A stretch of DNA of 64,000 nucleotides, taken from contig JBAZNA010000001.1 of the NCBI GenBank assembly GCA_041649475.1, forward strand, positions 197,022-261,021. The letters are read 5' to 3'. Of the stretch, positions 7,085-57,026 are shown piece by piece. Made by a program: the position numbers and the translations under genes. The DNA comes from Patescibacteria group bacterium (GTDB lineage Bacteria > Patescibacteriota > Patescibacteriia > Magasanikbacterales > GWA2-37-8). Below the pieces are notes generated by a model. That model searched no databases and was not told the origin of the DNA. It was given only the letters and a program-made list of their open reading frames with translations. Every line of letters begins with the position of its first letter. The stretch's first letter is position 1.

Positions 7085-9532
7085 ATGCTTATCTCTTTTA
7101 ACTGGTTAAAAAAATACGTCAAGTTACCTGATTCGGTTAGTGCCGAGGATGTAGCTGAAAAATTAAAGCAAAGCACGGTGGAAATTGAAAAAGTGGCCAG
7201 TCGCGCCAAGGATTTGGAAAATATTGTAGTTGGAAAAGTTGTGTCTTGCGATAAACATCCGAATGCCGATAAATTACAGGTTTGCAAAGTCAGCGTCGGC
7301 AATGAAGAAGTGGAAGTTGTTTGCGGAGGCAGTAATGTGAAAGAAGGAATGCTGGTGGCGCTGGCAAAAGTTGGCGCCAAAGTGCGCTGGCATGGAGCCG
7401 GGGAGTTGGTTGAGCTTGCGCCAACAGAGATTCGCGGCGTGAAATCATTCGGGATGATTTGCGCGTCAACTGAAATCGGTCTGGCTGACATGTTTCCTTT
7501 AAAAAGCGAAAAAGAAATTTTGGATTTGAGCGGCGTGAAAGCAAAGCCGGGCGCGCCTTTAAACAAAGCGTTGGGTTTGGATGATGCGGTTTTAGAAATT
7601 GATAATAAATCTTTGAGCAACCGGCCCGATCTGTGGGGGCATTACGGCCTGGCGCGTGAAGTGGCCGCGTTATATAAAAAGGATTTAAAAGCATACGAGG
7701 TCAAGAAAATAAAATCGGGCAAGGGCCTGAAAGTGAAAGTAGAAATTGAAGATAAAAAGTTGTGTCCGCGGTATATGGCCGTGGCCGTCTCGGGAATTAA
7801 GGTGAAAGAGTCCCCGGAGTGGCTAAAGAAAAGTTTGTTAGCAGTGGGCCTGCGACCAATAAACAACATCGTTGATATCACCAATTATGTGATGATGGAT
7901 TTGGGTCAGCCCATGCATGCGTTTGATGCCAAGGTTTTATCTGGCGATAAGAAACAGGCCGCGATTGTGGTGCGGCGTGCGAAAGACGGCGAAGAATTCG
8001 TTACTTTGGATGAACAGAAAAGAAAATTGGATTCGTCAATGCTTATGATTGCCAATCCGGAAAAATCGTTGGCCATTGCCGGCGTAATGGGCGGGATGGA
8101 AAGCGGAATTAATGCCGGTACTGATACTATAATTTTTGAATCCGCCAATTTTGATGCTTCATCAATAAGAAAAACGTCTACTAAATTGGGTTTGCGCACT
8201 GATTCATCGGCTCGTTTTGAAAAAAGTTTGGATCCGAATTTGTGCGTGTCGGCTTTAAGCAAAGCCGTCCAATTGGCGCTGGAATTAAATCCCGGCGCCG
8301 GTGTAGGCGGTAATATTGCCGATGAAGCAAATTTTCATCTTAGCACGGGTCCAATAGGATTTGGCCTGGAATATTTGAAGAAAATTGCCGGAGTGGAAAT
8401 TTCCAAAAAAGAAGCGGTAAGCATTTTAGAACGATTGGGTTTTGCGGTCACCGGTAAAGGCGATGAAATGAAAGTAAAAATTCCCAGCTGGCGCGCCACC
8501 AAAGACATCTCTCTTCCCGAGGACTTGGTTGAAGAAATTGTGCGTATTTATGGCTATGAAAATATATTGTCTGCGATGCCGACGTTTCCGATAAACCCGC
8601 CGGAAGAAAACAAAGTGCGTAAACTGGAAAGACAAATTAGGGATTTGCTGGTAAAAGAAATGTCATATACGGATATGTATAATTATTCTTTTGTCAGTCC
8701 GCAGATGATTGCCAAAATGAATGATGATGTTAAAAAATATATTGAACTTGATAATCCAATTTCGCAGGAACGGCCGTATGTGCGCCGGCATTTAATCACT
8801 AACCTGTTGGAAAATATTTTAAAAAATATTGATAATCATCCCACTTTGCGTTTATTTGAAATCGGTAAAACCTTTATAAGTGAAAAGCCGGGGCAAAGAA
8901 CAATGGCCAACAATGACGATCTGCTTCCGCGCCAGGACACCTGGCTGACAAGTGTGTTTGTGGAAAAGAAAAATGCGGCGCCGTTTTGGCAGGCACGCCG
9001 GGTAGTGGAAAATATTCTGGGCGATTTGGGGCAAAATTTTGAAGTGAAGGTGCCGAAAGAAATTTATCCGTGGCAGCATAAAGCGCGCGTGGCCAGAGTA
9101 ATGGTTGCCGGAGAAGATGTGGGTTCGGTTTATGAACTTAATCCGGCCGCGGGAGCCAACTTAGGTTTAGAGTGGAGCGTGGGCGTGGCGGCGTTAAACA
9201 TTGATAAGCTGGCAATGCTGCCTGTGTCTGACAAAAAATATAAACCACTGTCAGAATATCCGGCCATAGAACGGGATTTGGCGATTTTGGTGAAAAAAGA
9301 AGTTTCACACGGTGAAATTATTTCAGCCCTGGCGCACACTGATCCGATTTTAGCATCTGTGGATCTGTTTGACGTCTATGAAGGAGAGAACATCGGCGCC
9401 GGTTACAAAAGCATGGCTTATCATTTTGTCTATCGCGACCTTAAGCGAACCCTTACGGCCGGAGAGGTTGAAAAAGTGCACAGTAAAATTTTAAAAATTC
9501 TTCAGGAAAAATTTAAAGCGAGCGTGAGATAG
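7085..9532 (+). CDS. pheT: phenylalanine--tRNA ligase beta subunit
   Basis: 815 aa with an N-terminal tRNA-binding domain (MLISFNWLKKYV, CDKHPNADKLQVC), B3/B4 and B5 regions and a C-terminal FDVY anticodon-binding domain. Confidence 0.9.
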   Translation: MLISFNWLKKYVKLPDSVSAEDVAEKLKQSTVEIEKVASRAKDLENIVVGKVVSCDKHPNADKLQVCKVSVGNEEVEVVCGGSNVKEGMLVALAKVGAKVRWHGAGELVELAPTEIRGVKSFGMICASTEIGLADMFPLKSEKEILDLSGVKAKPGAPLNKALGLDDAVLEIDNKSLSNRPDLWGHYGLAREVAALYKKDLKAYEVKKIKSGKGLKVKVEIEDKKLCPRYMAVAVSGIKVKESPEWLKKSLLAVGLRPINNIVDITNYVMMDLGQPMHAFDAKVLSGDKKQAAIVVRRAKDGEEFVTLDEQKRKLDSSMLMIANPEKSLAIAGVMGGMESGINAGTDTIIFESANFDASSIRKTSTKLGLRTDSSARFEKSLDPNLCVSALSKAVQLALELNPGAGVGGNIADEANFHLSTGPIGFGLEYLKKIAGVEISKKEAVSILERLGFAVTGKGDEMKVKIPSWRATKDISLPEDLVEEIVRIYGYENILSAMPTFPINPPEENKVRKLERQIRDLLVKEMSYTDMYNYSFVSPQMIAKMNDDVKKYIELDNPISQERPYVRRHLITNLLENILKNIDNHPTLRLFEIGKTFISEKPGQRTMANNDDLLPRQDTWLTSVFVEKKNAAPFWQARRVVENILGDLGQNFEVKVPKEIYPWQHKARVARVMVAGEDVGSVYELNPAAGANLGLEWSVGVAALNIDKLAMLPVSDKKYKPLSEYPAIERDLAILVKKEVSHGEIISALAHTDPILASVDLFDVYEGENIGAGYKSMAYHFVYRDLKRTLTAGEVEKVHSKILKILQEKFKASVR

Positions 9533-9607: not shown

Positions 9608-9994
9608 ATGATAGAAACTTCCAAAGATATTTTATACCTGGTCATCGCGTTTTGTGTTTTGTGGCTGACGGTTTTTCTCTGCTGGACGTTTTTCTACGTG
9701 GTGAAAATTTTAAAGAACACCAACCGGGTGGTTGAAGAATTTCGCTCGCGCCTGCAACTGCTAACTGAAACCATAAATTATGTGCGCGGCAAGGTGGAAA
9801 GCATTCATGCTTTGATTGGTTTAGCCGGCGGCAATGTAGCCAATGCCGTAAAAAATATCGTGAGCAAGAAAGCCAAAGAATGGGTTGATAGCGGTTCTAA
9901 AAAAATGAATACTTCAGCTAAAGACGCGGTGGACTTTGCGGTAAAAGCGACTGCAAAGGGCATGAGCAAGGTAGCAAAGAAGATTAGAAGATAA
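9608..9994 (+). CDS. hypothetical small membrane protein
   Basis: 128 aa with an N-terminal transmembrane helix and a Lys-rich C-terminus. It is preceded by an extended -10 (tgcTATAAT) and an AAGGAG ribosome-binding site, and followed by a terminator hairpin. Confidence 0.5.
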   Translation: MIETSKDILYLVIAFCVLWLTVFLCWTFFYVVKILKNTNRVVEEFRSRLQLLTETINYVRGKVESIHALIGLAGGNVANAVKNIVSKKAKEWVDSGSKKMNTSAKDAVDFAVKATAKGMSKVAKKIRR

Positions 9995-10149: not shown

Positions 10150-10497
10150 ATGGGAATGCGCGCGAAGGACTGGGAGGCGGCCCAGGCCGTTTTCTTGAAA
10201 GAGGCCGGTGCCGACCCTGACCCCGACGATTCGTGGACCGTAGTTCGGTCGCCGAGTTTGCAGGAGCTTCTGCTGGCAAAGGAGCAGGAGTTCCCGGTTG
10301 AGCTCGAGCTCTCCGACGGCCGCAAGATGACCGTGTTCGTCGAGGATATCAAGGACCCCGACGCGCACGGCGAAGTGGAGGTGTACGTAATGTACGTCGC
10401 CAACGGCAACCGGCGCCGGCGGTACCTGCACTTCACCCCCGACGTCTACGAGCCCAGGGTCAACGTCTACCCCGAGCCCAAGGAATCCGTGGGCTGA
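10150..10497 (+). CDS. hypothetical protein, compositionally foreign GC-rich cassette A (115 aa)
   Basis: ATG preceded by a GAAGGAGAAAAAAG ribosome-binding site. Codon third positions are strongly G/C-biased, and the first 60 nt count about 63% GC against about 28-40% in neighbouring genes. Its own promoter is upstream and an intrinsic terminator is downstream. No recognisable domain. Confidence 0.6.
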   Translation: MGMRAKDWEAAQAVFLKEAGADPDPDDSWTVVRSPSLQELLLAKEQEFPVELELSDGRKMTVFVEDIKDPDAHGEVEVYVMYVANGNRRRRYLHFTPDVYEPRVNVYPEPKESVG

Positions 10498-15117: not shown

Positions 15118-15564
15118 TTATGGCCAGTTGAGTTCCGCCGGCATAGGCCAATCACTGGCGTCGAAACTCACGAATCCCGGCGTCCATTTGAACTTGGACG
15201 CTTCTCCCGGACCAGAAGTGCCCGTGAGCTCGTGAATTTTTTTAGAACTGAGCACCTTGAGCGGCGACATCTCTTTCGGCTCCGGGCTATCGATAGTGGC
15301 CTGGAGAGAATAACCAATCCCTTTCGTGGGATTGTAGAGGAGAAGTTGCGTGGCGACTTTTGCCCGTTTGTGCTCAAGGCAGTCCCACACCATCTTCAAG
15401 AGCGGCTTCTCCACTACGACCACAGGTTCATTATCCTCTGCAGTCAGAGCTGGGAATACACCCATCAGTCCGTGTTCGATCAGCAGTAGGTAACCGTACC
15501 GAAGCTGCCATCCGCTCAGATCCTTTTCGAAGATGCTTCCCAGCGCCGGTCCTTGTTTGCTCAT
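15118..15564 (-). CDS. hypothetical protein, GC-rich cassette B (148 aa)
   Basis: Start chosen at MSKQGPALG because it is preceded by TTGGAGGAAACC-ATG (GGAGG ribosome-binding site). The coding sequence is GC-rich, unlike the host. It lies 33 nt downstream of the 3' end of tRNA-Met on the same strand and is followed by a GC hairpin. No recognisable domain. Confidence 0.55.
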   Translation of the reverse strand: MSKQGPALGSIFEKDLSGWQLRYGYLLLIEHGLMGVFPALTAEDNEPVVVVEKPLLKMVWDCLEHKRAKVATQLLLYNPTKGIGYSLQATIDSPEPKEMSPLKVLSSKKIHELTGTSGPGEASKFKWTPGFVSFDASDWPMPAELNWP

Positions 15565-15597
15565 GGTTTCCTCCAAGATCGAGATCGTTTTCCCGAG

Positions 15598-15671
15598 TGT
15601 CAGGGGAGGGAGTCGGACCCTCGACCTTAGGGTTATGAATCCTACGCTCTTACCAACTGAGCTACCCTGAC
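15598..15671 (-). tRNA. tRNA-Met (anticodon CAT; could also be a lysidine-modified tRNA-Ile2)
   Basis: The reverse complement folds as a cloverleaf. It has a 7-bp acceptor stem GTCAGGG/CCCTGAC, a D-arm GCTC-AGTTGGTAA-GAGC, an anticodon loop TTCATAA and a T-arm GAGGG-TCCGACT-CCCTC. There is no encoded CCA. G1-C72 is paired, so it is an elongator type. Confidence 0.75.
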
Positions 15672-18073: not shown

Positions 18074-18400
18074 TCACAGGACCACTTCTTCGTAGTAGTC
18101 GGCCCGCTCGTGGCTAGCGTAGGGGCTTGATTTGGCATCCTTGAGCGCAGCTGCGGCGAACGGTTCGTCTATGGTGACCTCGGCAACGTTCTCGCACTTG
18201 GCGATCAACAGCTGACAACCATCACAGCCGAATCCGGTCACGGTTGCCAGAACCAGCGCCTCCTTGATCTTCGGTACCCGGCCCTCTTTGCGGATGGCTT
18301 CGGCCACATCGGCCGCGTTTTCTCCACCGCAGTCGGTCCAGAACTTGAAAACAACCTCATCACCCTTGCGCACACTAACGAGTCCGGTTTTTCCGTGCAT
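18074..18400 (-). CDS. hypothetical protein, GC-rich cassette C (108 aa, contains a GCDGC Cys pair)
   Basis: The ATG is preceded by a perfect AAGGAGG ribosome-binding site that overlaps the TAA stop of the upstream FAD oxidoreductase gene. The coding sequence is strongly GC-rich. It has no promoter of its own and ends at the terminator at 18021-18052. Confidence 0.55.
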   Translation of the reverse strand: MHGKTGLVSVRKGDEVVFKFWTDCGGENAADVAEAIRKEGRVPKIKEALVLATVTGFGCDGCQLLIAKCENVAEVTIDEPFAAAALKDAKSSPYASHERADYYEEVVL

Positions 18401-24366: not shown

Positions 24367-25447
24367 TGCTTTAAGACAAAATTGGGTGGTGATAACGGGG
24401 CTACTATTGGCGCTAGTGGTATCAATACGCCGCACTAAAGACGACTCTTTTTTTCCACCGCAAACCACCACCGAACTCAAAGGTTTGGCGATTTTAATGG
24501 TGGTTTTTTCTCATATTGGTTATTTTTTAGTCAGCGATCGCCAGTTTTTAGTGCCGCTCTCCAATTATGCCGGCGTGGGGGTGGATTTATTTTTGGTATT
24601 GTCCGGTTATGGTTTGGTGGTTTCGGCCTTGAAAAAACCATTATCAATCGGTCAATTCTACTCTAAACGTTTGCGCCGTATTTATATACCCGTGGCCGTG
24701 ACCGTGGCGCTTTTTGTTCTGCTTGATTTCTTTTTTCTGCACCTAACCTATCCTTTAAAAACCGTTATAGAAAATTTATTGGGATTTTTTCCGCGCGCGG
24801 ATTTATATCAGGATATTAATTCGCCTTTGTGGTATATCACACCGCTTCTGGCGTATTACCTTCTTTTTCCGCTGATTTTTTGGAAGCGCTTTCCGGCGGT
24901 GTCTGCCATTGGTATGGCTTTAGTCGGGTGGCTGTTTATAAAATACTCTCCCCAATTTCATATTGTTTCCGTGGATATGATAAAGCTGTATAAACTTCAC
25001 TTTCTGTCATTTCCACTGGGCGTAGCTTTGGGGGCGTTAAGTCCGATGTTAAGCCGTCTGCGTCTGTCGGCCGTTTGGCGCTGGCTGATAATTATTTTAT
25101 CTTTGGGCGTGTTTGCCTATACCTATTCTCATTCGTTTGTGACTGATAGTGTGTTAAGAGATGCAGTCGCCAGTTTGATGACGGTGATGGCTGTCATAGC
25201 CCTGTTTGTTTATAAAAAGATCAATTTTAAAATCCTCGCCCTGTTAGGCGTGTTTTCTTTTGAAATATATTTATTGCACTGGCCGCTTCTCTATCGCTAT
25301 AATTTTTTATACGGCAAAATTCCGGCCGGCTTGGCCACGCTTATTTATCTCGCCTTGTTTTTGGGACTGGGATTTTTATACCAAAAATTACTCTCCTTGT
25401 TCTATCCCGTTAGGCGTCAGCCGGATGTTTCCGGTAAGTCCGTTTGA
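24347..25447 (+). CDS. acyltransferase family 3 membrane protein (O-acyltransferase)
   Basis: Polytopic membrane protein carrying the AT3 signature near its N-terminus (LKGLAILMVVFSHIGYF). Confidence 0.7.
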   Translation: MAILITDALRQNWVVITGLLLALVVSIRRTKDDSFFPPQTTTELKGLAILMVVFSHIGYFLVSDRQFLVPLSNYAGVGVDLFLVLSGYGLVVSALKKPLSIGQFYSKRLRRIYIPVAVTVALFVLLDFFFLHLTYPLKTVIENLLGFFPRADLYQDINSPLWYITPLLAYYLLFPLIFWKRFPAVSAIGMALVGWLFIKYSPQFHIVSVDMIKLYKLHFLSFPLGVALGALSPMLSRLRLSAVWRWLIIILSLGVFAYTYSHSFVTDSVLRDAVASLMTVMAVIALFVYKKINFKILALLGVFSFEIYLLHWPLLYRYNFLYGKIPAGLATLIYLALFLGLGFLYQKLLSLFYPVRRQPDVSGKSV

Positions 25448-25822
25448 AGTGCCTTCTAAAGTGGCGGTAATGGTGTAATAATTTGTGCCGCTGGTTGAAC
25501 TGTAAATATAATTTCCGGACTGCGGATCTTTCGGAACTTTTCCCATATAAGCGCCGACACAGCCGGTGGCTTGCCAGCCGTCGGAGTTGAGGCAGGCCGT
25601 ATCAGTGTTTCCTAAAGCTACGTCATCGCCAATCGGGTAATGGTTTTCGTCGTTATTATAAAGTTCCAGGGCCGTGCCAATTTGTCTAAGATCGGCCAGC
25701 CGCTTGGTGTCTCGCGACGCGGATTTGGCCGTGCCGTAGACCACAATCACAATTGTTGCCAGTAGTCCGATAATAGCGATCACAATCAGTAATTCTATTA
25801 AAGTGAAACCTTTTTTGGACAT
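25388..25822 (-). CDS. type IV pilin-like protein (prepilin with N-terminal methylation motif)
   Basis: True start placed at MSKKG|FTLIELLIVIAIIGLLA, the classic class III signal with Gly at -1, Phe at +1 and Glu at +5. The ORF-track extension upstream to 26044 is rejected. Confidence 0.7.
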   Translation of the reverse strand: MSKKGFTLIELLIVIAIIGLLATIVIVVYGTAKSASRDTKRLADLRQIGTALELYNNDENHYPIGDDVALGNTDTACLNSDGWQATGCVGAYMGKVPKDPQSGNYIYSSTSGTNYYTITATLEGTSNGLTGNIRLTPNGIEQGE

Positions 25823-25865
25823 AAATGATTTTAGTTTTTTAAATTCGGTTGAATACATTATAACA

Positions 25866-25906
25866 TAAAAAAAGAGGCAATTCCACCGGCGGCAGAACTG
25901 CCTTGA
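25866..25906 (-). terminator. intrinsic terminator downstream of cassette D
   Basis: The reverse strand shows GC hairpins (ggcagttctgcc, gaggcaattgcctc region) ending in ctcttttttta. Confidence 0.5.
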
Positions 25907-25928
25907 AACCTTCTTCTGGTCTTCCTCC

Positions 25929-26282
25929 TTAGGTGTCAACCGTCTCCACCGGAGGGTTGGGCACTGTTGGCCCCCAGAGAGGGACGAATTCCGTGCTCTG
26001 GAAGTTCTTGCGACACAACTCTTCAAGACCAGGGGTATCGCCATCGTAGATGACCCGGGAGGCCGTAATCACGGCCCGATCCTGCTTGGACCCGAACCCC
26101 ATCTGGGCGGCCAAGTTGTAGGCGTTCCTAGCCGAAGGGGCTTCACCGTTTTTTTGCACTTCCGCGCGAATTGCGTCAGCAAAACGCTTGGTGAGATTGC
26201 CGCCGCGGCCAACCACAACTTTCATCAAAACCACGTCGCCTCGGAAAACGATGACCATTCCCGGAACAGCAGTCGTGGACAT
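25929..26282 (-). CDS. hypothetical protein, GC-rich cassette D (117 aa)
   Basis: The ATG is preceded by AAGGAGG-attctcc. The coding sequence is GC-rich. It has its own consensus promoter and terminator. No recognisable domain. Confidence 0.55.
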   Translation of the reverse strand: MSTTAVPGMVIVFRGDVVLMKVVVGRGGNLTKRFADAIRAEVQKNGEAPSARNAYNLAAQMGFGSKQDRAVITASRVIYDGDTPGLEELCRKNFQSTEFVPLWGPTVPNPPVETVDT

Positions 26283-26804: not shown

Positions 26805-28337
26805 TTATTTTGCGTATTCCACCACTCTGGTTTCACGAATTATGGTTACTCTGATTTCTCCAGGATACTGTAATTCTTGCTCAATTTTACGGGCAATGTC
26901 CTTGGCTAATTGGAAGGCAGAGTAATCATCAATTTCGTTTGGTTTAACGAAGATCCGTATTTCTCGTCCGGCTTGGATGGCATACACCTTTTCAATTCCC
27001 GGGAAGGAGGTGGCTGTTTTCTCCAGTTCTTCCAAGCGAGCGATGAATTGTTCATAACTGTCTTTGCGGGCGCCGATTCTGGCGCCGGAAATTGCATCCG
27101 CGGCTTTGGCAATGCTGGCAAAGATATTGAATGTTTTATCCAGGTGATGAGTCAAAGCTGTTTGGGCAATGTCTTCATCCATATTGAATTTTTTGAGGAT
27201 CATGTTGCCGATTTCCGGGTGAGAGCCCTGGGTTTCCTGATCAACTGATTTGCCGATATCATGAAAGAAGCCGCATTTTTTTGCTCTGGCGGCGTCCAGT
27301 CCAAGTTCGCTCGCAATCAAGGATGACAAATATCCCACTTCCATTGAATGGTTCAAGATGTTTTGTCCGTAACTGGTTCTGTATTTTAAGCGTCCGACAA
27401 TGCCGACCAGTTTTGGATCAATGCCGGTGATACCCATTTTATATAGGGCTTCTTCACCGGCTTTCTTTATATCAATGGCCAAATCCTGTTTGGCTTTTTC
27501 AATAAATTCTTCAATGCGGGCCGGCTGGATTCTGCCGTCGGCCATTAATTTTTCCAAAGCCAGTTTGGCAATTTGGCGTCTGATCGGGGAGAAGCCGGAA
27601 ACCATGATCGCGTCCGGAGTGTCGTCAATGATAAGTTCACAGCCGGTTAGTTTTTCAATGGTTTTAATGTTGCGGCCTTCTTTGCCGATGATGCGCCCCT
27701 TCATTTCCTCGCTGGGCAAGGACACGGTGGTTGAAGTGATTTCAGCCGCGTGCGAAGAGGCACAGCGCTGAATGGCTTCACCGATAATAGTGCGCGCCTT
27801 TTCTTCAAAGACCTCGCCGGATTCTTTTTCCAGTTTCATGATGCGGGCGGCCAAATCATTTTTACTTTCCTCTTCCACCCTAACTAAGAGTTCGGTCTTG
27901 GCTTCGTCTCTGGTCAGTCCGGCAATGCCCTGCAGTTTTTCAATTTCCTGATCGCGCATTTTTTCCAAATCCTGCTTGATTTGCTGGACTTTTTCCACTT
28001 TTTCCTGGAGTTTTTGCTGTTTGTCCTGGAATTCTAAAAGTTTCTGGTCAAACATATTTTCACGTTTTTCCAGACGCTGTTGCACGCTGTGCAATTCCTG
28101 GCGCAATTGTTTTTCTTCCCGTTTGGCTTCATCAATTATCTGCGCGCCTTTTTCTTTGGCTTGCAGGATGAATTCCTGCTGTTTGGTCTTGGCTTCGTTT
28201 AAAAGCTTTTCGGCTTTGGCTTCAATAGAGTTGGCCTGGGCCTGGGCTATTTTTTTACGTAAAATATACCCCAGCAAGAAGGCTATACCGACGCCGACCA
28301 GGGTGATGATCGCCCAGGTAAAATTAGTTAAATGCAT
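26805..28337 (-). CDS. rny: ribonuclease Y
   Basis: N-terminal transmembrane helix, a coiled-coil region, a KH domain (GRIIGKEGRNIKTIE) and an HD domain (FFHDIGK), 510 aa. Confidence 0.85.
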   Translation of the reverse strand: MHLTNFTWAIITLVGVGIAFLLGYILRKKIAQAQANSIEAKAEKLLNEAKTKQQEFILQAKEKGAQIIDEAKREEKQLRQELHSVQQRLEKRENMFDQKLLEFQDKQQKLQEKVEKVQQIKQDLEKMRDQEIEKLQGIAGLTRDEAKTELLVRVEEESKNDLAARIMKLEKESGEVFEEKARTIIGEAIQRCASSHAAEITSTTVSLPSEEMKGRIIGKEGRNIKTIEKLTGCELIIDDTPDAIMVSGFSPIRRQIAKLALEKLMADGRIQPARIEEFIEKAKQDLAIDIKKAGEEALYKMGITGIDPKLVGIVGRLKYRTSYGQNILNHSMEVGYLSSLIASELGLDAARAKKCGFFHDIGKSVDQETQGSHPEIGNMILKKFNMDEDIAQTALTHHLDKTFNIFASIAKAADAISGARIGARKDSYEQFIARLEELEKTATSFPGIEKVYAIQAGREIRIFVKPNEIDDYSAFQLAKDIARKIEQELQYPGEIRVTIIRETRVVEYAK

Positions 28338-29580: not shown

Positions 29581-29922
29581 CTAGCCGGCGGCGGAAGCGG
29601 CGATGGGGGCGATCTTGGGCTGGATGTCGATCACGGGGATCGGCTCGGGCAGACCGTCGAAGCGCTGGCGGAGCCAGTCGATCTCGGGCTCCGAGGCCTC
29701 GCCCATGAAGATCTCGATGTAGAACGTCCCCCTGATGAGGCCCTCGTACTTCAGCTTGAAGCCGGGGATCTCGTCGTCGAAGTCGGCCTTGTGCGGCCTG
29801 TTGACGTACCTGTTGAAGTCGTTGAGCGAGCAGTACCTGACGCTGCCGTCCACGAACTGGATCCGTACGGCCCTTGTCTGCAAGGTCGTGTCCGGGAACG
29901 TCATCAGCTTCTGGATCGGCAT
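29581..29922 (-). CDS. hypothetical protein, GC-rich cassette E (113 aa from MPIQKL)
   Basis: Start chosen at the methionine preceded by AAGGAGagggag. The ORF-track ORF extends to 29994 with an Arg-rich low-complexity N-terminus that is probably untranslated leader. The coding sequence is GC-rich, and both its 5' leader (about 105 nt) and its 3' UTR (about 90 nt) are long and GC-rich. Confidence 0.5.
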   Translation of the reverse strand: MPIQKLMTFPDTTLQTRAVRIQFVDGSVRYCSLNDFNRYVNRPHKADFDDEIPGFKLKYEGLIRGTFYIEIFMGEASEPEIDWLRQRFDGLPEPIPVIDIQPKIAPIAASAAG

Positions 29923-39992: not shown

Positions 39993-41795
39993 TTGATTAA
40001 TTATATGAATAATGAAAAATTGGAAATCATGAGGCATAGCTGCGCTCATTTGGTGGCGGCGGCTGTTTATGAGCTTTATCCGGACGCAAAGTTCGGCGTC
40101 GGGCCGGTGGTGGAAAACGGCTTTTATTATGATATAGATTTTAAGAAGCCAATCGGTGAAGCTGATTTGGAAAAGATTGAAGCCAAAGCCGGGGAATTGG
40201 CCAAAAAAGATCTAAAATTTGAACGCCAGGAGATGTCTCTTGATGAAGCGATTAAATTTTTCAAAAAAGAAAAACAGGATTATAAGGTTGAGCTTTTGCA
40301 GGATTTAAAAAAGCACGGCACCACCAACCTGAAAGACGTTGAAGAAATGAAAGATATGGATGTAAAAAATGTTTCTTTGTATAAAACTGGGGAGTTTGTT
40401 GATTTGTGCCGCGGACCGCACATCAAGTCCAGCAAGGAAATCGGCGCATTTAAAATCACCAAATTGGCCGGGGCTTATTGGCGCGGTAAAAATGAAAATC
40501 CGCAACTACAAAGAATTTACGGCGTTTGTTTTGCCAAAACATCCGAGCTTGAAGAGTATTTACACATGATGGAGGAGGCGGAGAAAAGAGATCACAGAAA
40601 GATTGGTCAGGAACAGAAATTATTTTTTATTGATGATTTAGTCGGCAAGGGCTTGATCATGTGGCAGCCGAATGGAACAATTATTAGAAATGAAATTGAA
40701 AAATTGGCGGTGGAAGAGGAAAACAAAGGCGGATACGTGCGCGTGGTGACTCCGCACATGGCCAAAGAGGAATTGTATTTAACTTCCAAACACTTGCCAT
40801 ATTACAAAGACAGCATGTATCCGGCCATGACAATGGATGACGGTGTGTATTATTTAAGAGGTATGAATTGTCCGCATCACCATTTGATTTACCGGCACGA
40901 AATGCGCAGCTATAGGGACTTGCCAATCAGAATTGCCGAGTATGGTACTGTTTATAGGAATGAATTGTCCGGAACTCTGGCTGGACTGCTTCGGGTGCGC
41001 GGATTGGCCATGAACGATGCTCATATTTATTGCCGCAAGGATCAAATCAAATCCGAATTTAAAGCCGTGATGGAGCTGACAATGAAATATTTTGACATTT
41101 TTGGGATGAATGACTATTGGTTCAGATTATCAAAATGGAGTCCAAAACATTTGGAAAAATATATCAATGAGCCGGCCAATTGGGAATATGCTCAAAATAT
41201 AATCAGGGAGGTCTTGGATGAAATGAAAGTTAAGTATGTTGAAATAGACGACGAAGCGGCATTTTATGGCCCGAAGGTGGATGTTCAATTAAAATCGGTA
41301 ATTGGCAGGGAAGAAACCATGTCAACCATTCAGCTGGATTTTGTTGCTAAGCAGAGATTTGGCTTGGCCTATACGGACGAGACCGGTAAAGAGAATAATG
41401 AGGTCTTTGTGATTCATCGCGCTCCACTTTCCACTCATGAAAGATTCATGGCGTTTTTAATAGAGCACTATGCCGGCAGTTGGCCGGTTTGGCTGTCTCC
41501 GGTTCAGGTTTTGCTGGCGCCGGTTTCAGAAAAACATGTTGACGGTGCAAAAAAGTTGGCCAAAGAATTGTTTGAAGTCGGAATTCGCGTAGAAATTGAT
41601 GATGCCAATGAAACGATTGGCAATAAAGTGCGCAAGGCCGTGGAACGGAAGATCCCATATATTGTGGTGGTGGGTGATAAAGAGTTGGGCGGGGAGGATT
41701 GGATGATTAGAGTGAGAGGACAGAAGGAGCAAGTGAAGATGTCAAAGGATGAATTTGTTAAAAAAGTAGCTGATGAAATAAGTAAAAGAAAGTAG
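39993..41795 (+). CDS. thrS: threonine--tRNA ligase
   Basis: 600 aa with an N-terminal editing-type region (HSCAHL), a class II core and a C-terminal anticodon-binding domain. Confidence 0.9.
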   Translation: MINYMNNEKLEIMRHSCAHLVAAAVYELYPDAKFGVGPVVENGFYYDIDFKKPIGEADLEKIEAKAGELAKKDLKFERQEMSLDEAIKFFKKEKQDYKVELLQDLKKHGTTNLKDVEEMKDMDVKNVSLYKTGEFVDLCRGPHIKSSKEIGAFKITKLAGAYWRGKNENPQLQRIYGVCFAKTSELEEYLHMMEEAEKRDHRKIGQEQKLFFIDDLVGKGLIMWQPNGTIIRNEIEKLAVEEENKGGYVRVVTPHMAKEELYLTSKHLPYYKDSMYPAMTMDDGVYYLRGMNCPHHHLIYRHEMRSYRDLPIRIAEYGTVYRNELSGTLAGLLRVRGLAMNDAHIYCRKDQIKSEFKAVMELTMKYFDIFGMNDYWFRLSKWSPKHLEKYINEPANWEYAQNIIREVLDEMKVKYVEIDDEAAFYGPKVDVQLKSVIGREETMSTIQLDFVAKQRFGLAYTDETGKENNEVFVIHRAPLSTHERFMAFLIEHYAGSWPVWLSPVQVLLAPVSEKHVDGAKKLAKELFEVGIRVEIDDANETIGNKVRKAVERKIPYIVVVGDKELGGEDWMIRVRGQKEQVKMSKDEFVKKVADEISKRK

Positions 41796-41805
41796 CTTTT
41801 AATAA

Positions 41806-41840
41806 AAAGAAAAAAGCACCCATTACCGGGTGTTTTTTTA
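41806..41840 (+). terminator. intrinsic terminator of thrS (gcacccattaccgggtg + T7)
   Basis: aaaaagcacccattaccgggtgttttttta. Confidence 0.65.
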
Positions 41841-41855
41841 TCCCCAGGTTTACCC

Positions 41856-41884
41856 TTGACCAATTGTCTTTTTTATGCTAAAGT
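41856..41884 (+). promoter_or_regulatory. sigma70-like promoter TTGACC -17- TAAAGT for cassette F
   Basis: ttgacc aattgtcttttttatgc taaagt, followed by the leader hairpin cctgccagagaaaggcagg and an AAGGAGG ribosome-binding site. Confidence 0.5.
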
Positions 41885-41931
41885 ATGTGGTTCCTGCCAG
41901 AGAAAGGCAGGTCAGAAAGGAGGCCTCTCGG

Positions 41932-42312
41932 ATGACACGGGTCATGAGTTTGATGGCTTTCTACGCGACTTATCGTCTCTTAAAGGTCGCGTACCGTGCG
42001 ACCGAGAGACAGCTTAGGCTATTCTTCGTCCCCAAGCCGGGGTGCGAGGGGGCCTACGAGGTGGATGAGCAAATCTTCGCCAAGGTTCGGACGCTCATCG
42101 TCAATTCCAGGTCGTTTCAGACCGAAATCTACCCGCTGAACGCCAGTGACGTGGGGGAAGATTTCCGCCTTGGCGACCAGGATTTCACCGGCTCGGTGAT
42201 GGTCTGGCTGAAGGAAGTAGATCCTTTAGACGCACTGTTTACCGACAGAATCAAGGAGGTTGTGTTCGGAGAGGAGAAAGAGTATCGCTTTCAGTGCGGT
42301 TCCCGCAACTAG
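41932..42312 (+). CDS. hypothetical protein, GC-rich cassette F (126 aa from MTRVMSL)
   Basis: Start chosen at the methionine 8 nt after the AAGGAGG ribosome-binding site. The ORF-track start at 41875 lies inside the leader. The coding sequence is GC-rich, and a GC hairpin follows the stop codon. Confidence 0.55.
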   Translation: MTRVMSLMAFYATYRLLKVAYRATERQLRLFFVPKPGCEGAYEVDEQIFAKVRTLIVNSRSFQTEIYPLNASDVGEDFRLGDQDFTGSVMVWLKEVDPLDALFTDRIKEVVFGEEKEYRFQCGSRN

Positions 42313-42406
42313 CATCTGGGCGCTCATCTTCACTCCTCTCCGGGCGCCTTTACTACTTGGACTCGGATTGGTATAATATATTTACTAAAATTTAATTTTA
42401 TATCAT

Positions 42407-42973
42407 ATGTTAAGCGAAGCATCAGCAAGAGCGGCAAAAGCCAGACAATTTCGCGCTAAAAATGCTGAAGTAACCGTACCTCATAGAGAGGCCGCCAGAA
42501 AACTTAAAGCCCAGATGAAGGAAGAAAAACAGGCAACAGCAAGAAATATGGTTCGTGAGGAAATTGAAACTTTGGCTGACAAATTGGAGGCGGAAGGAGA
42601 TAAAGCAATAAATGGAGTTTTAGGCACCATAATTGAAAATGGCGATGTTGATGATTTGGATGTTTTAAAAATGTTAGACGGTTTCTGTTATCTGAAAAGA
42701 ACAGAATTAGAACATGACAAAGTTGATAGAAGTATTTTGATGAGAGATGATACCTTGAGGGCGCAGGTGAAAAAAGCTTTAGAAAATTATAGCACCGGTG
42801 TTAAAAACCAAAAGAAAATTTTTGACGCCAGTGCGGGATTTGAAACCGGAAAGGAATACGCGCTTAAAGAAGGTGAAGACGCCATCAATGAACTTATGAG
42901 CCGGGCCCGTCAAAATATTGACGGTTTGATAACCGACAGAATCAACGAGATGGCTAACGAAGGAAAAAATTAA
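42407..42973 (+). CDS. hypothetical protein
   Basis: 188 aa, charged and helical, in host-like composition. Confidence 0.45.
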   Translation: MLSEASARAAKARQFRAKNAEVTVPHREAARKLKAQMKEEKQATARNMVREEIETLADKLEAEGDKAINGVLGTIIENGDVDDLDVLKMLDGFCYLKRTELEHDKVDRSILMRDDTLRAQVKKALENYSTGVKNQKKIFDASAGFETGKEYALKEGEDAINELMSRARQNIDGLITDRINEMANEGKN

Positions 42974-44286: not shown

Positions 44287-45174
44287 CTAAAGTTTGATAC
44301 TTTTGAGAGATATTTTTAAATATAAATTTGAAGTCTTGTTTATTAAGAATTTTAATGTTTTGGGCAATACCCTGTCTAATAATGCAAGAAACGAGATAGT
44401 ATATATTAAGGTTAAAAAATTATTTTTAAGTATCGTGATTATAAAATTTGGTTTATAATCCATCTTCCAGAATATTATATAAAGAATAAAATGTAATATG
44501 CAGAAGAATGCTATTGGCCAGAATGGAGCTTTAAAACCAAGTAGATCCCATTTTTCTGGCTCACCGAATTGGTTATTACTTTCGGGCGAGTTATAAATTT
44601 TATCATTCTTCATAATCCTTGACCAAATATCAGTGAATTTGGTTCCAGATATTATAAGTAGTAACCATTGAAAGCAGTCAGATATAAATTTTATAATATC
44701 GGTTATAATTACCCTCCAAAATAATAATTTTAACCTAAGTTTAAAACCCTTTAGTGGCATGGTTGGTTTTGTATGAAGCAAGTATAGCTCGTCGAGTAAC
44801 ATATTTGCTGTTATTTCTTTATTTTTTTTATAAAATTTGTTCAAGATAACATCATAAAAATACTCATCATTTGAAGTAAAATCTATCGGGCCAGTAACTT
44901 TTTTTATTTTATCTTGGTTACTCAATGATATGTAAGATCCTTTGTCATCTTCTTTAAGTTTTCCATAGCTAACCCTTATGGATAGGGGTTTAATGTTGCC
45001 ATCCTTCAGTACATTTTCATTACTGATGTAAATATAGAATATTGATCCCCAATCGTCTGAACCCATTTTTCTAATTATACTAAAGCCAAATTTGCAATCT
45101 TTTAAAGGAGTGAGATTCAAAAATAATCCATTAGTTCCTATATTAAAATCTTTTATGAAATCTTGATTTTCCAT
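44287..45174 (-). CDS. hypothetical membrane protein encoded by an AT-rich insert between miaB and miaA
   Basis: 295 aa. The N-terminal half of about 190 aa is soluble and Lys/Asn/Ile-rich. The C-terminal part carries about three predicted transmembrane helices. GC is visibly lower than in the flanking genes. Confidence 0.5.
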   Translation of the reverse strand: MENQDFIKDFNIGTNGLFLNLTPLKDCKFGFSIIRKMGSDDWGSIFYIYISNENVLKDGNIKPLSIRVSYGKLKEDDKGSYISLSNQDKIKKVTGPIDFTSNDEYFYDVILNKFYKKNKEITANMLLDELYLLHTKPTMPLKGFKLRLKLLFWRVIITDIIKFISDCFQWLLLIISGTKFTDIWSRIMKNDKIYNSPESNNQFGEPEKWDLLGFKAPFWPIAFFCILHFILYIIFWKMDYKPNFIITILKNNFLTLIYTISFLALLDRVLPKTLKFLINKTSNLYLKISLKSIKL

Positions 45175-55838: not shown

Positions 55839-56504
55839 ATGGCGACCGCAAAACAGATTCCGTTTTTGATGGGAAGGTTGGTGGAGCATCAGTTTTACTT
55901 CTGTGCTTTGTCCACCGCAAGCGCCACGTGGGCGAGCCAAAACCCGAAAGACGCCATTGCCTTGTGCGTGGCGGCGATCGAGAATCGCCAAAAGGAGCGT
56001 CAGTCCGACCCGGCGCCTTCGCCACTCCTCACCTTGGTCGGTGCCGTCGTGATCTGGCTGGCCGTGAGGTTCGTTGCCAGTGAACACCTGGTGAAGAATA
56101 CCGAGAAGAACGCGCCGGTGAAGATTTCCTACATCTTCGATAAGGTCACCGTGTGGTTCCAGGGCAAGATCGAGGAGCGGGTCGAGGGCGAGATGGCTCT
56201 GTGCTGCCATACCCTGAACTCCGACTCGGACGATAACCTCATCATCAACCAGCTCGGCGGCGAGACCAAGGCCGAGACCGCCCTTGCCGAGGTCTTTGCC
56301 TGCTTGGAGAAGCAACCCAACGGCGAGGATGGTGCGCTACTCACTAACGGCCACGCGAACATCTTCTATGTTCGCAACACCGAAGGTGTGTTGTGCGTGA
56401 TCCAAGTGATCTGGCGCGGTGACGGTTGGACCTTCTACACCCGTTCGGTCGGTTCTCTGGACACATGTACCGAGGGCCGCCGGGTGTTCTCCCGCGCCGC
56501 ATAG
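55839..56504 (+). CDS. hypothetical protein, GC-rich cassette G (221 aa)
   Basis: GC-rich coding sequence with its own promoter and ribosome-binding site, followed by an intrinsic terminator. No recognisable domain. There is one hydrophobic segment (LLTLVGAVVIWLAV). Confidence 0.55.
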   Translation: MATAKQIPFLMGRLVEHQFYFCALSTASATWASQNPKDAIALCVAAIENRQKERQSDPAPSPLLTLVGAVVIWLAVRFVASEHLVKNTEKNAPVKISYIFDKVTVWFQGKIEERVEGEMALCCHTLNSDSDDNLIINQLGGETKAETALAEVFACLEKQPNGEDGALLTNGHANIFYVRNTEGVLCVIQVIWRGDGWTFYTRSVGSLDTCTEGRRVFSRAA

Positions 56505-56594: not shown

Positions 56595-56600
56595 TAACCC

Positions 56601-56994
56601 ATTCATAGCGGATGATCGAGCCGACTTAGTCGGCTAGGAAAGTCCGAACACCCAAGATGGCAGTGGGTAACGCCCACCGCTACGGTGGCAACGCCGTGGT
56701 TGGGAAAGTGGCACAGAGACAATTCTAACCCCGACAAGCTCGGGGTAAAAGGTGAAAAGTGTATGGGGGATTTGGTTCTCGAGACCAAAGCTACTATACT
56801 CGGCTGATAGCAATATCAGTTCGTGCTAAACCCTGCCTGGTGCAAGAGCAGCGTTTCGCGGCGCAAAACCGCGGTTCGAAAAGTTCGCTCGCTAGAACGC
56901 GTTAGCAATAACGCGTCCAGATAAATGATCGTCACCTCGCCCCATTTTTAAACAAAATGGTGCGGAGCACAAAATTCGGCTTATAGCTATGAAT
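56601..56994 (+). ncRNA. rnpB: RNase P RNA (bacterial type A)
   Basis: P1 pairing ttcatagc/gctatgaa. P2 gagccga...tcggctt and a P3 hairpin ccgacttagtcgg. P4 5' strand AGGAAAGTCCG and 3' strand ACAAAATTCGGCTTA. Conserved GGGTAACGCC, GTGGCACAGAGACAAT and GGTAAAAGGTGAAAAGTG blocks match the E. coli M1 RNA pattern. Confidence 0.8.
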
Positions 56995-56995
56995 A

Positions 56996-57026
56996 AAAAA
57001 GACGACCCGCAAGGGCCGTCTTTTAA
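56996..57026. terminator. bidirectional intrinsic terminator (gacgacccgcaagggccgtc) flanked by A6 and T4
   Basis: aaaaaagacgacccgcaagggccgtctttt. It ends rnpB (+) and the convergent 57040-58578 gene (-). Confidence 0.65.

Follow-up and report, generated by a model that had tools for sequence, protein, structure and literature searches.

We analyzed a stretch of 64,000 nucleotides (nt) from a Patescibacteria group bacterium (Magasanikbacterales; contig JBAZNA010000001.1, positions 197,022 to 261,021), here called the window. The analysis concerns cassette F, a short GC-rich element with a single open reading frame (ORF) between thrS and the next native gene. Our reading, to which we give a probability of roughly 0.6, is that positions 41856 to 42358 form one autonomous transcription unit carrying an orphan gene that is inherited within a clade at the thrS/miaB locus. 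Cassette F was compared between the window, two close orthologous loci (L003 and L007) and a distant one (L012); two more distant relatives (L008 and L009) were also examined, and the cassette is absent from both. Protein searches covered 5.8 billion proteins with a word-indexed method and 1.84 billion representatives, standing for ~15 billion proteins, with a full HMMER profile. Among named genomes, the closest is a metagenome-assembled genome of Candidatus Magasanikbacteria, whose ThrS is 74% identical.

The upstream boundary of the unit is the intrinsic terminator of thrS (CACCC-ATTACC-GGGTG followed by seven T residues, 41817-41839, plus strand), which lies just past the end of that gene (39993-41795, plus strand). 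A terminator scan scored this hairpin on the minus strand only, because its A-tract and T-tract are symmetric. In L003, the thrS terminator is gone through a 32-nt deletion (about positions 310-330 of that locus). Beyond it, the motif TATCCMCWGG (41839-41848, plus strand), kept in all four loci, stands just 5' of the −35 element. The promoter itself (41856-41884, plus strand) consists of TTGACC (41856-41861) and TAAAGT (41879-41884) with a 17-nt spacer and a TG at 41876-41877, at −15/−14, which makes an extended −10. The hexamers and their spacing fit the sigma-70 requirement (16-18 nt), and the scan score was 9 of 12 plus the extended −10. Promoter-like matches numbered 28 in 6.5 kb versus 15 expected, and a single match alone is not significant. 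The conservation carries more information: TTGAC, the spacer sequence CTTTTTTRTGC and T(A/T)(A/T)AGT are kept in four of four orthologous loci, L012 with its saturated synonymous divergence (dS) included. The −35, the T-run and TGC of the spacer, the −10, the position of a leader hairpin, the Shine-Dalgarno sequence (SD) and the ORF are likewise conserved in all four. No second copy of the promoter sequence was found within the window. From this extended −10 promoter of the sigma-70 type, transcription would start at about 41889-41891, 6 to 8 nt past the −10.

The ORF (41932-42312, plus strand) encodes 126 amino acids (aa) and has a GC content of 0.543, compared with a window mean of 0.435, and of 0.71 at third codon positions (GC3). 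At NCBI it is WC526_01215, a "hypothetical protein", with a gene model of 145 aa that starts at an ATG at 41875. This ATG sits in the promoter, between its two hexamers; in L003 it falls out of frame, and in L012 a stop codon follows it straight away. We therefore take 126 aa to be the correct length. A preliminary description of this DNA, made from the sequence alone, had placed a promoter TTGACC-17-TAAAGT, a leader hairpin, AAGGAGG with an ATG 8 nt on and a GC-rich ORF of 126 aa in the interval from the thrS terminator to the next gene's promoter. Every one of these elements was found in its place, and their arrangement supports an autonomous unit.

On comparative evidence, the ORF is a real protein-coding gene. 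It is open and free of frameshifts in four orthologues, down to 36% identity; across the three close ones it contains no indels, and three indels lie just outside it. The ratio of nonsynonymous to synonymous divergence (dN/dS) of the three close pairs is 0.35, 0.65 and 0.48, with a synonymous excess at p = 0.0016, 0.17 and 0.016, respectively; for the downstream 188-aa gene, dN/dS is 0.10-0.16. The SD and the ATG are conserved at the correct spacing, and no long ORF occurs in the other frames or on the other strand of the locus. We also weighed whether the ORF could be spurious and the GC-rich segment a structured noncoding RNA. The whole predicted transcript is indeed more structured than dinucleotide shuffles (z = −4.05), the dS of the ORF is below that of the neighboring gene (0.22-0.29 versus 0.41-0.56), and stop codons are scarcer in GC-rich DNA. 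With the frame open through four orthologues and indels confined to its outside, a synonymous excess, an SD and ATG held at the right spacing, and no Rfam match, this alternative is hardly credible.

The gene belongs to a very small family with a fixed chromosomal address. The word-indexed search returned three clusters only (100, 79 and 74% identity), and the HMMER profile search added one more, distant member at 36%; a profile re-search of the 5.8-billion-protein database gave no further member. Scans of metagenome_contigs with the promoter-leader DNA pattern and with the protein profile found no member, and they did not recover the window's own genome either. All members share the locus order comEC, methyltransferase, metallo-beta-lactamase (MBL)-fold gene, unassigned gene, thrS, ORF, 188/206-aa gene, miaB. 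Between L012 and the window, MiaB is 85% identical, the orphan protein 36% and the 188-aa protein 29% (partial length); dS is 1.5 and saturated. Because the orphan gene occupies the same site while MiaB is 85% and the orphan protein 36% identical, we regard it as a resident yet fast-evolving gene. All four genomes with the orphan gene carry the 188/206-aa gene as well, whereas L008 lacks the pair. This pattern fits a unit inherited vertically in a small clade of Magasanikbacteria-like Patescibacteria. An assembly chimera or a synthetic insert was rejected: the DNA of the unit has 100% identical copies in one ENA and one Logan assembly, the 126-aa protein is also encoded on a 963-kb contig recorded under JGI, Logan and ENA, and diverged orthologues are present in other samples.

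ThrS itself differs in its divergence along the chain. Compared by eye between the window (39993-41795) and L012 (4065-5876), residues ~1-230 and ~480-600 are roughly 85-90% identical, and the class II core at ~230-480 is much more diverged. This suggests a mosaic in which the catalytic core may have been replaced by recombination in one lineage.

The base composition of cassette F invites another reading, which the preliminary description had implied by setting a foreign cassette among native genes. GC3 is 0.71 in cassette F versus 0.35-0.51 in the native genes of the window, and 0.67 in the L012 orphan gene versus 0.42 in its thrS. Together with an SD where native genes have none, a full set of expression signals, the absence from L008 and L009 (with a different GC-rich, SD-led ORF by miaB in L008) and six similar units with GC3 of 0.62-0.96 scattered in the window, this could point to a moron-like cassette gained horizontally, complete with its expression signals (promoter, SD and terminator), from a GC-rich donor that uses SDs. 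The history of the substitutions contradicts a recent gain. Among the three close orthologues, polarized changes ran 30 from GC to AT versus 26 from AT to GC; at third positions, the numbers were 7 versus 13, where the host regime predicts ~73% GC-to-AT changes (p = 0.0004). The GC-richness of cassette F is stationary, not the fading trace of a transfer. GC3 correlates with GC1 and GC2 (GC content at first and second codon positions), from which the values expected of a GC-rich donor follow. In cassette F, GC1 is 0.56 (native genes, ~0.50) and GC2 is 0.37 (~0.34), both near native and unlike the proteins of GC-rich genomes.

The searches and the surroundings of the unit weigh in the same balance. 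No donor-like homologue was found in 15 billion proteins, IMG/VR, phage records or plasmids; specifically, an IMG/VR scan and phage and plasmid BLAST searches returned no relative of cassette F. The unit has no integrase or prophage context, and mobile-element boundaries were rejected because no direct or inverted repeats flank it. An integron gene cassette, which is a promoterless ORF with an attC recombination site at its 3' end and belongs to an array, was likewise rejected: the unit has its own promoter and no cassette-flanking repeats, and the GC-rich units of the window lie kilobases apart among housekeeping genes (no formal attC model was run). Above all, orthologous units, promoter and leader included, occupy the same site down to 36% identity and at dS ~1.5. 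The foreign status implied earlier thus does not hold up against syntenic orthologues of stationary GC. The clear homologue at host composition in relatives that the preliminary description thought would tell against its own reading was found in part: the homologue exists, but its composition is again GC-rich. Insertion in recent times is effectively excluded, and the moron-like cassette as a whole is unlikely; one ancient acquisition at the base of the clade could still have taken place.

A phage moron is one ORF of atypical composition that is inserted between two genes and brings a promoter and a terminator of its own (PMC4378225). Cassette F resembles one in its single ORF, its own promoter and terminator-like hairpin, its atypical composition and its intergenic site between co-oriented genes. 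It differs in that it sits among chromosomal housekeeping genes (thrS and miaB), is vertical and compositionally stationary, and has no known relative in which its two flanking genes are adjacent. The unit is present in four of four genomes that share the thrS/188-aa/miaB arrangement, and moron-type absence was not found among them. It is not located in a phage or prophage: its neighbors are thrS, miaB, comEC, an MBL-fold gene and a YkuD gene, and no match turned up in PHROGs, IMG/VR or phage records.

In favor of a vertically inherited, autonomous unit, a hairpin is kept near the predicted 5' end of its transcript. The leader hairpin (41893-41911, plus strand) is formed by CCTGCC (41893-41898), the loop AGAGAAA and GGCAGG (41906-41911), giving 6 bp and a 7-nt loop, with an energy of −10.4 kcal/mol that 0.4% of shuffles equal. 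When the leaders were folded one by one, a hairpin appeared in four of four orthologues and was better than 98-100% of shuffles. Its stem begins exactly 8 nt past the −10 in every orthologue and is thereby placed 1-4 nt from the predicted 5' end. The window and L007 share the stem CCUGCC/GGCAGG; L003 has CCUGCU/AGCAGG, a compensatory change from C:G to U:A, and L012 has a different 10-bp stem (CCUUGCCCCA/UGGGGUGAGG) at the same position. Since the loop sequences vary as well, structure rather than sequence is kept.

The SD, AAGGAGG (41917-41923, plus strand), lies unpaired 5 nt past the hairpin. Its distance of 8 nt to the ATG at 41932 agrees with the purine-rich element at 5-10 nt that characterizes SD-dependent initiation, and the orthologues carry AAGGAGG, AAGGAGA or AAGGGGG. 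The earlier remark that the hairpin sequesters nothing obvious is consistent with our folds, in which SD and start codon stay unpaired. Sequestration of the SD or start codon by the leader was also considered and rejected; alternative pairings were weak and nonsignificant (z = −1.1). A role of the hairpin as an attenuator was rejected because no U-tract follows it. Rfam covariance models gave nothing at the gathering score (best sub-threshold E = 0.4-0.9), and on these two grounds a known cis-regulatory RNA (riboswitch, leader or attenuator) was rejected too.

By analogy, the leader hairpin is most likely a stabilizer of the mRNA 5' end, which would explain why it sequesters nothing. Stem-loop and strong-SD stabilizers of this kind are the Escherichia coli ompA 5' untranslated region (UTR) and, in Bacillus subtilis, the aprE, ermC and cryIIIA (STAB-SD) elements. 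The likeness lies in a hairpin near the predicted 5' end, followed by an unpaired, near-perfect SD, in a stem that is kept while the loop varies, and in an RNase Y gene, which is encoded within the window. Cassette F differs in the shortness of its stem, with 6 bp in the lineage of the window, in a transcription start that is predicted, and in an uncultured host with SD-free native mRNAs. In the mechanism that we propose, the first RNA structure to form would be the 6-bp hairpin 1-4 nt from the 5' end, leaving the SD free. The hairpin and the strong SD could then guard against 5'-end-dependent decay by machinery of the RNase Y/J type. The canonical SD would bring ribosomes to a GC-rich, heavily structured mRNA, in a genome whose native genes use AU-rich, SD-free leaders. 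The unit would probably yield a long-lived mRNA, and its expression may be high.

The transcript is also predicted to have a structured 3' end, which reaches back into the coding sequence. The preliminary description had pointed to a GC stem after the stop codon (GGCGC at 42319-42323 and GCGCC at 42344-42348, plus strand), upstream of the TATAAT at 42372-42377. This stem is present, but it is merely the edge of a 15-bp helix that extends into the ORF. The 5' arm of the helix (GUGUUCGGAGAGGAG, 42262-42276, plus strand) lies within the last 17 codons, and the 3' arm (CUCCUCUCCGGGCGC, 42333-42347, plus strand) shares four of five bases with GCGCC at 42344-42348. The pairing includes a perfect 10-nt inverted repeat (pair I6), and the 56-nt loop contains the stop codon. 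The 133-nt 3' region folds at −50.7 kcal/mol (minimum free energy, z = −3.0). Folding predicts this architecture for L003 and L007 too. L003 has an A in place of G42343, so that a U·G pair becomes U-A. A 7-nt insertion, CATCTGG (42313-42319), directly 3' of the stop codon distinguishes the window from L003 and L007. The last 19 codons have 2 of 53 variable sites, compared with 19-26% elsewhere in the ORF (p = 0.001), and the 5' arm is conserved five times more than the rest of the ORF. Such a near-invariant ORF end fits a double constraint, on protein and RNA.

The GC-rich hairpin of an intrinsic terminator is thus provided by the 15-bp helix, and what follows it departs from the standard. The tail is a degenerate U-tract (TTTACTACTT, 42349-42358, plus strand), whose first 6 nt, TTTACT, are the −35 of the next promoter; immediately after the stem (CUUUACUACUU), there are three leading U residues only. 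No canonical U-run follows the stem, and the terminator scan does not call the tail. The earlier statement that the 3' hairpin lacks a T-tract, which makes read-through into the next gene at 42407 plausible, was accordingly upheld on both counts. What explains the missing T-run is that the tail also serves the next promoter as its −35. At the homologous place, L012 has a canonical terminator (GGTGCCCT-CCCC-AGGGCGCC, with an 8-bp stem) followed by TTATCTTTTT. In common with intrinsic terminators, cassette F therefore has a strong GC-rich helix directly after the ORF, and L012 the full hairpin and T-tract; the window helix differs in its length of ~85 nt, in a 5' arm inside the ORF and in a tail that serves as a −35. 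Given this co-opted U-tract, the terminator of the window lineage is probably leaky. The helix would close the transcript, act as a weak terminator and probably also shield the 3' end, with partial read-through into the 188-aa gene.

The downstream promoter (42349-42377, plus strand) reads TTTACT, 17 nt with a TG, and TATAAT, with a score of 10 of 12 plus the TG; together with its leader it has 5 of 58 variable sites among the three close orthologues. The 188-aa gene that it serves (42407-42973, plus strand) is lineage-specific, has a host-like GC content of 0.40 and no SD, and co-occurs with the orphan gene. A ribosome that is translating or terminating within the 56-nt loop would be expected to keep the helix from closing, so translation could modulate read-through. 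It is conceivable on this basis that cassette F is a cis-regulatory device for the 188-aa gene and miaB, acting by translation-coupled attenuation: the last 17 codons contain the 5' arm of the helix and the loop contains the stop codon, the segment is almost invariant, a T-run is lacking, and the orphan and 188/206-aa genes are either both present or, in L008, both absent. We consider such a device improbable. The 188-aa gene is served by a strong, conserved promoter of its own and is therefore independent of read-through. In L012, the whole terminator is within the UTR and ends in a canonical T-tract, so translation-modulated read-through is not a family trait. Finally, a 126-aa ORF conserved at the protein level goes far beyond a leader peptide.

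The protein gave no lead in the reference collections. Pfam, NCBIfam, PHROGs and PADLOC returned no match, and the best hit of a sequence profile search of the PDB had E = 0.1. In the profile search of 1.84 billion representatives, two repeat proteins, one of the MucBP type with 2605 aa and one with 806 aa, matched at E ~3e-4; both were judged spurious because their scores were summed over repeats. Modeling points to a helix at the N terminus and a beta-rich domain after it. Like other ORFan genes, cassette F is small, has four members among ~15 billion proteins, evolves fast (36% where miaB is at 85%) and has no detectable fold relative. ORFans in AT-rich genomes are usually AT-rich or of host composition, whereas cassette F keeps a GC3 of ~0.7 and an SD that native genes lack.

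A composition that is stationary across saturated divergence means that something keeps the synonymous sites GC-rich. The GC3 shift is alike in NNY, NNR and four-fold codons; since all codon classes share it, tRNA-driven translational codon selection was rejected as the cause. Candidates for the upkeep of the high GC3 are selection for a stable, structured mRNA, biased gene conversion and recurrent replacement by DNA of an unsampled source. Per nt, the folding energy of the whole mRNA is −0.39 kcal/mol, and that of native genes is −0.19 to −0.33. We rejected selection on mRNA structure over and above composition, as the codon-shuffle z scores are negative but no more so than in thrS. An opposite compositional anomaly lies right after miaB, where a 295-aa ORF (44287-45174, minus strand) has 28% GC, no Pfam match and a mildly hydrophobic product and forms an AT-rich island.

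Several observations weigh against an autonomous, clade-inherited unit with a stabilized mRNA. One close pair has a dN/dS of 0.65 (p = 0.17). The covariation of the leader hairpin, from four or five sequences, amounts to one clean compensatory pair and the different L012 stem, and RNAalifold gave no net covariation bonus because L012 misaligns. The excess structure over codon shuffles (z = −2.1 to −3.0) is matched by some native genes (thrS, −3.0) and is thus not distinctive. The 5' end, the half-life and the termination efficiency all rest on prediction. The 16S rRNA gene, whose 3' end would carry the anti-SD CCUCC, lies neither in the window nor in the other loci compared, and a published survey of Parcubacteria detected the anti-SD in only 48% of them (PMC9297842). 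Our explanation also leaves the high GC3 and the role of the protein unaccounted for.

Cassette F is not the only element of this kind. The 64 kb hold seven GC-rich small ORFs (A to G), several kilobases apart, in gaps between housekeeping genes; their neighbors include pheT, dnaE, tsaD, rny, truB, infB, thrS and the RNase P RNA gene. The six units besides F are A (10150-10497, plus strand), B (15121-15564, minus), C (18074-18400, minus), D (25929-26282, minus), E (29584-29922, minus) and G (55839-56504, plus), with GC3 values of 0.62-0.96. All six are co-oriented with the downstream gene and annotated by NCBI as hypothetical proteins. A clear match to a TTGAC-type promoter precedes four of them (A, C, D and G), and a hairpin with a T-run terminator follows five (A, C, D, E and G, not B). 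The units also share a translational feature: an AGGAGG-type SD was found in seven of the seven GC-rich units versus a clear SD in 1 of 46 long native ORFs (p ~5e-8), whose upstream regions are AU-rich. The sole native exception is a 128-aa DUF948-like gene (9608-9994). The same contrast between GC-rich ORFs and native genes holds in L012 and L008.

None of units A to G belongs to a known family (Pfam, NCBIfam and PHROGs). In the word-indexed search, unit E matched nothing but itself. Units A, B, C, D and G each stand alone in a 90%-identity cluster, and F, C and G had no relative in IMG/VR. The proteins of C and D are paralogues (BLASTP E = 1e-6, 38% over 58 aa), and at least one orphan family has therefore duplicated within the genome. 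In unit E, a GC3 of 0.956 stands beside a GC2 of only 0.38: it is a case of extreme synonymous GC with an ordinary amino acid composition.

The settings of the remaining units vary. Unit B lies directly 3' of tRNA-Met (15597-15671, minus strand); as it has no obvious promoter of its own, it may be cotranscribed. Unit G is directly 5' of the RNase P RNA gene (56600-56999, plus strand). Unit D is located between the RNase Y gene (26805-28337, minus strand) and a type IV pilin-like gene (N_methyl and T2SSG; 25388-26044, minus strand). The listed long ORF of the latter overlaps unit D, which places the true start of the pilin gene further downstream, past the terminator of D. In L008, which is from a Magasanikbacteria metagenome-assembled genome, an unrelated GC-rich ORF (0.58) of ~161 aa lies just 5' of miaB (7340-7920). 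It is accompanied by TTGACT, 17 nt, TATATT and AAAGGAGG, then by a hairpin and T-run terminator. With this unit, the phenomenon is not confined to one genome.

We entertain, as a doubtful proposition at present, that cassette F is a member of a genome-wide class, in Magasanikbacteria-like Patescibacteria, of small, fast-evolving, GC3-rich orphans that are translated by means of an SD, and that this class reflects a separate, selected expression regime rather than the remnants of transfer. In such a regime, stable, structured, SD-dependent mRNAs may stand beside the AU-rich, SD-free mRNAs of housekeeping genes.

Taken alone, the unit is an ordinary gene, self-contained and coding for an unknown protein, and well-known counterparts exist for each of its RNA elements. 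Its atypical GC and foreign-looking signals are, in this case, not evidence of recent transfer. What is unexplained and interesting is that a stationary GC3 coincides with an SD in an otherwise SD-free genome, a combination common to the six neighboring units. The strict association between the SD and GC-rich orphans suggests two modes of initiation in one tiny Patescibacterial genome. If this is true genome-wide, it would offer a handle on how such organisms express their lineage-specific genes and would mark which of their many hypothetical proteins are strongly expressed.

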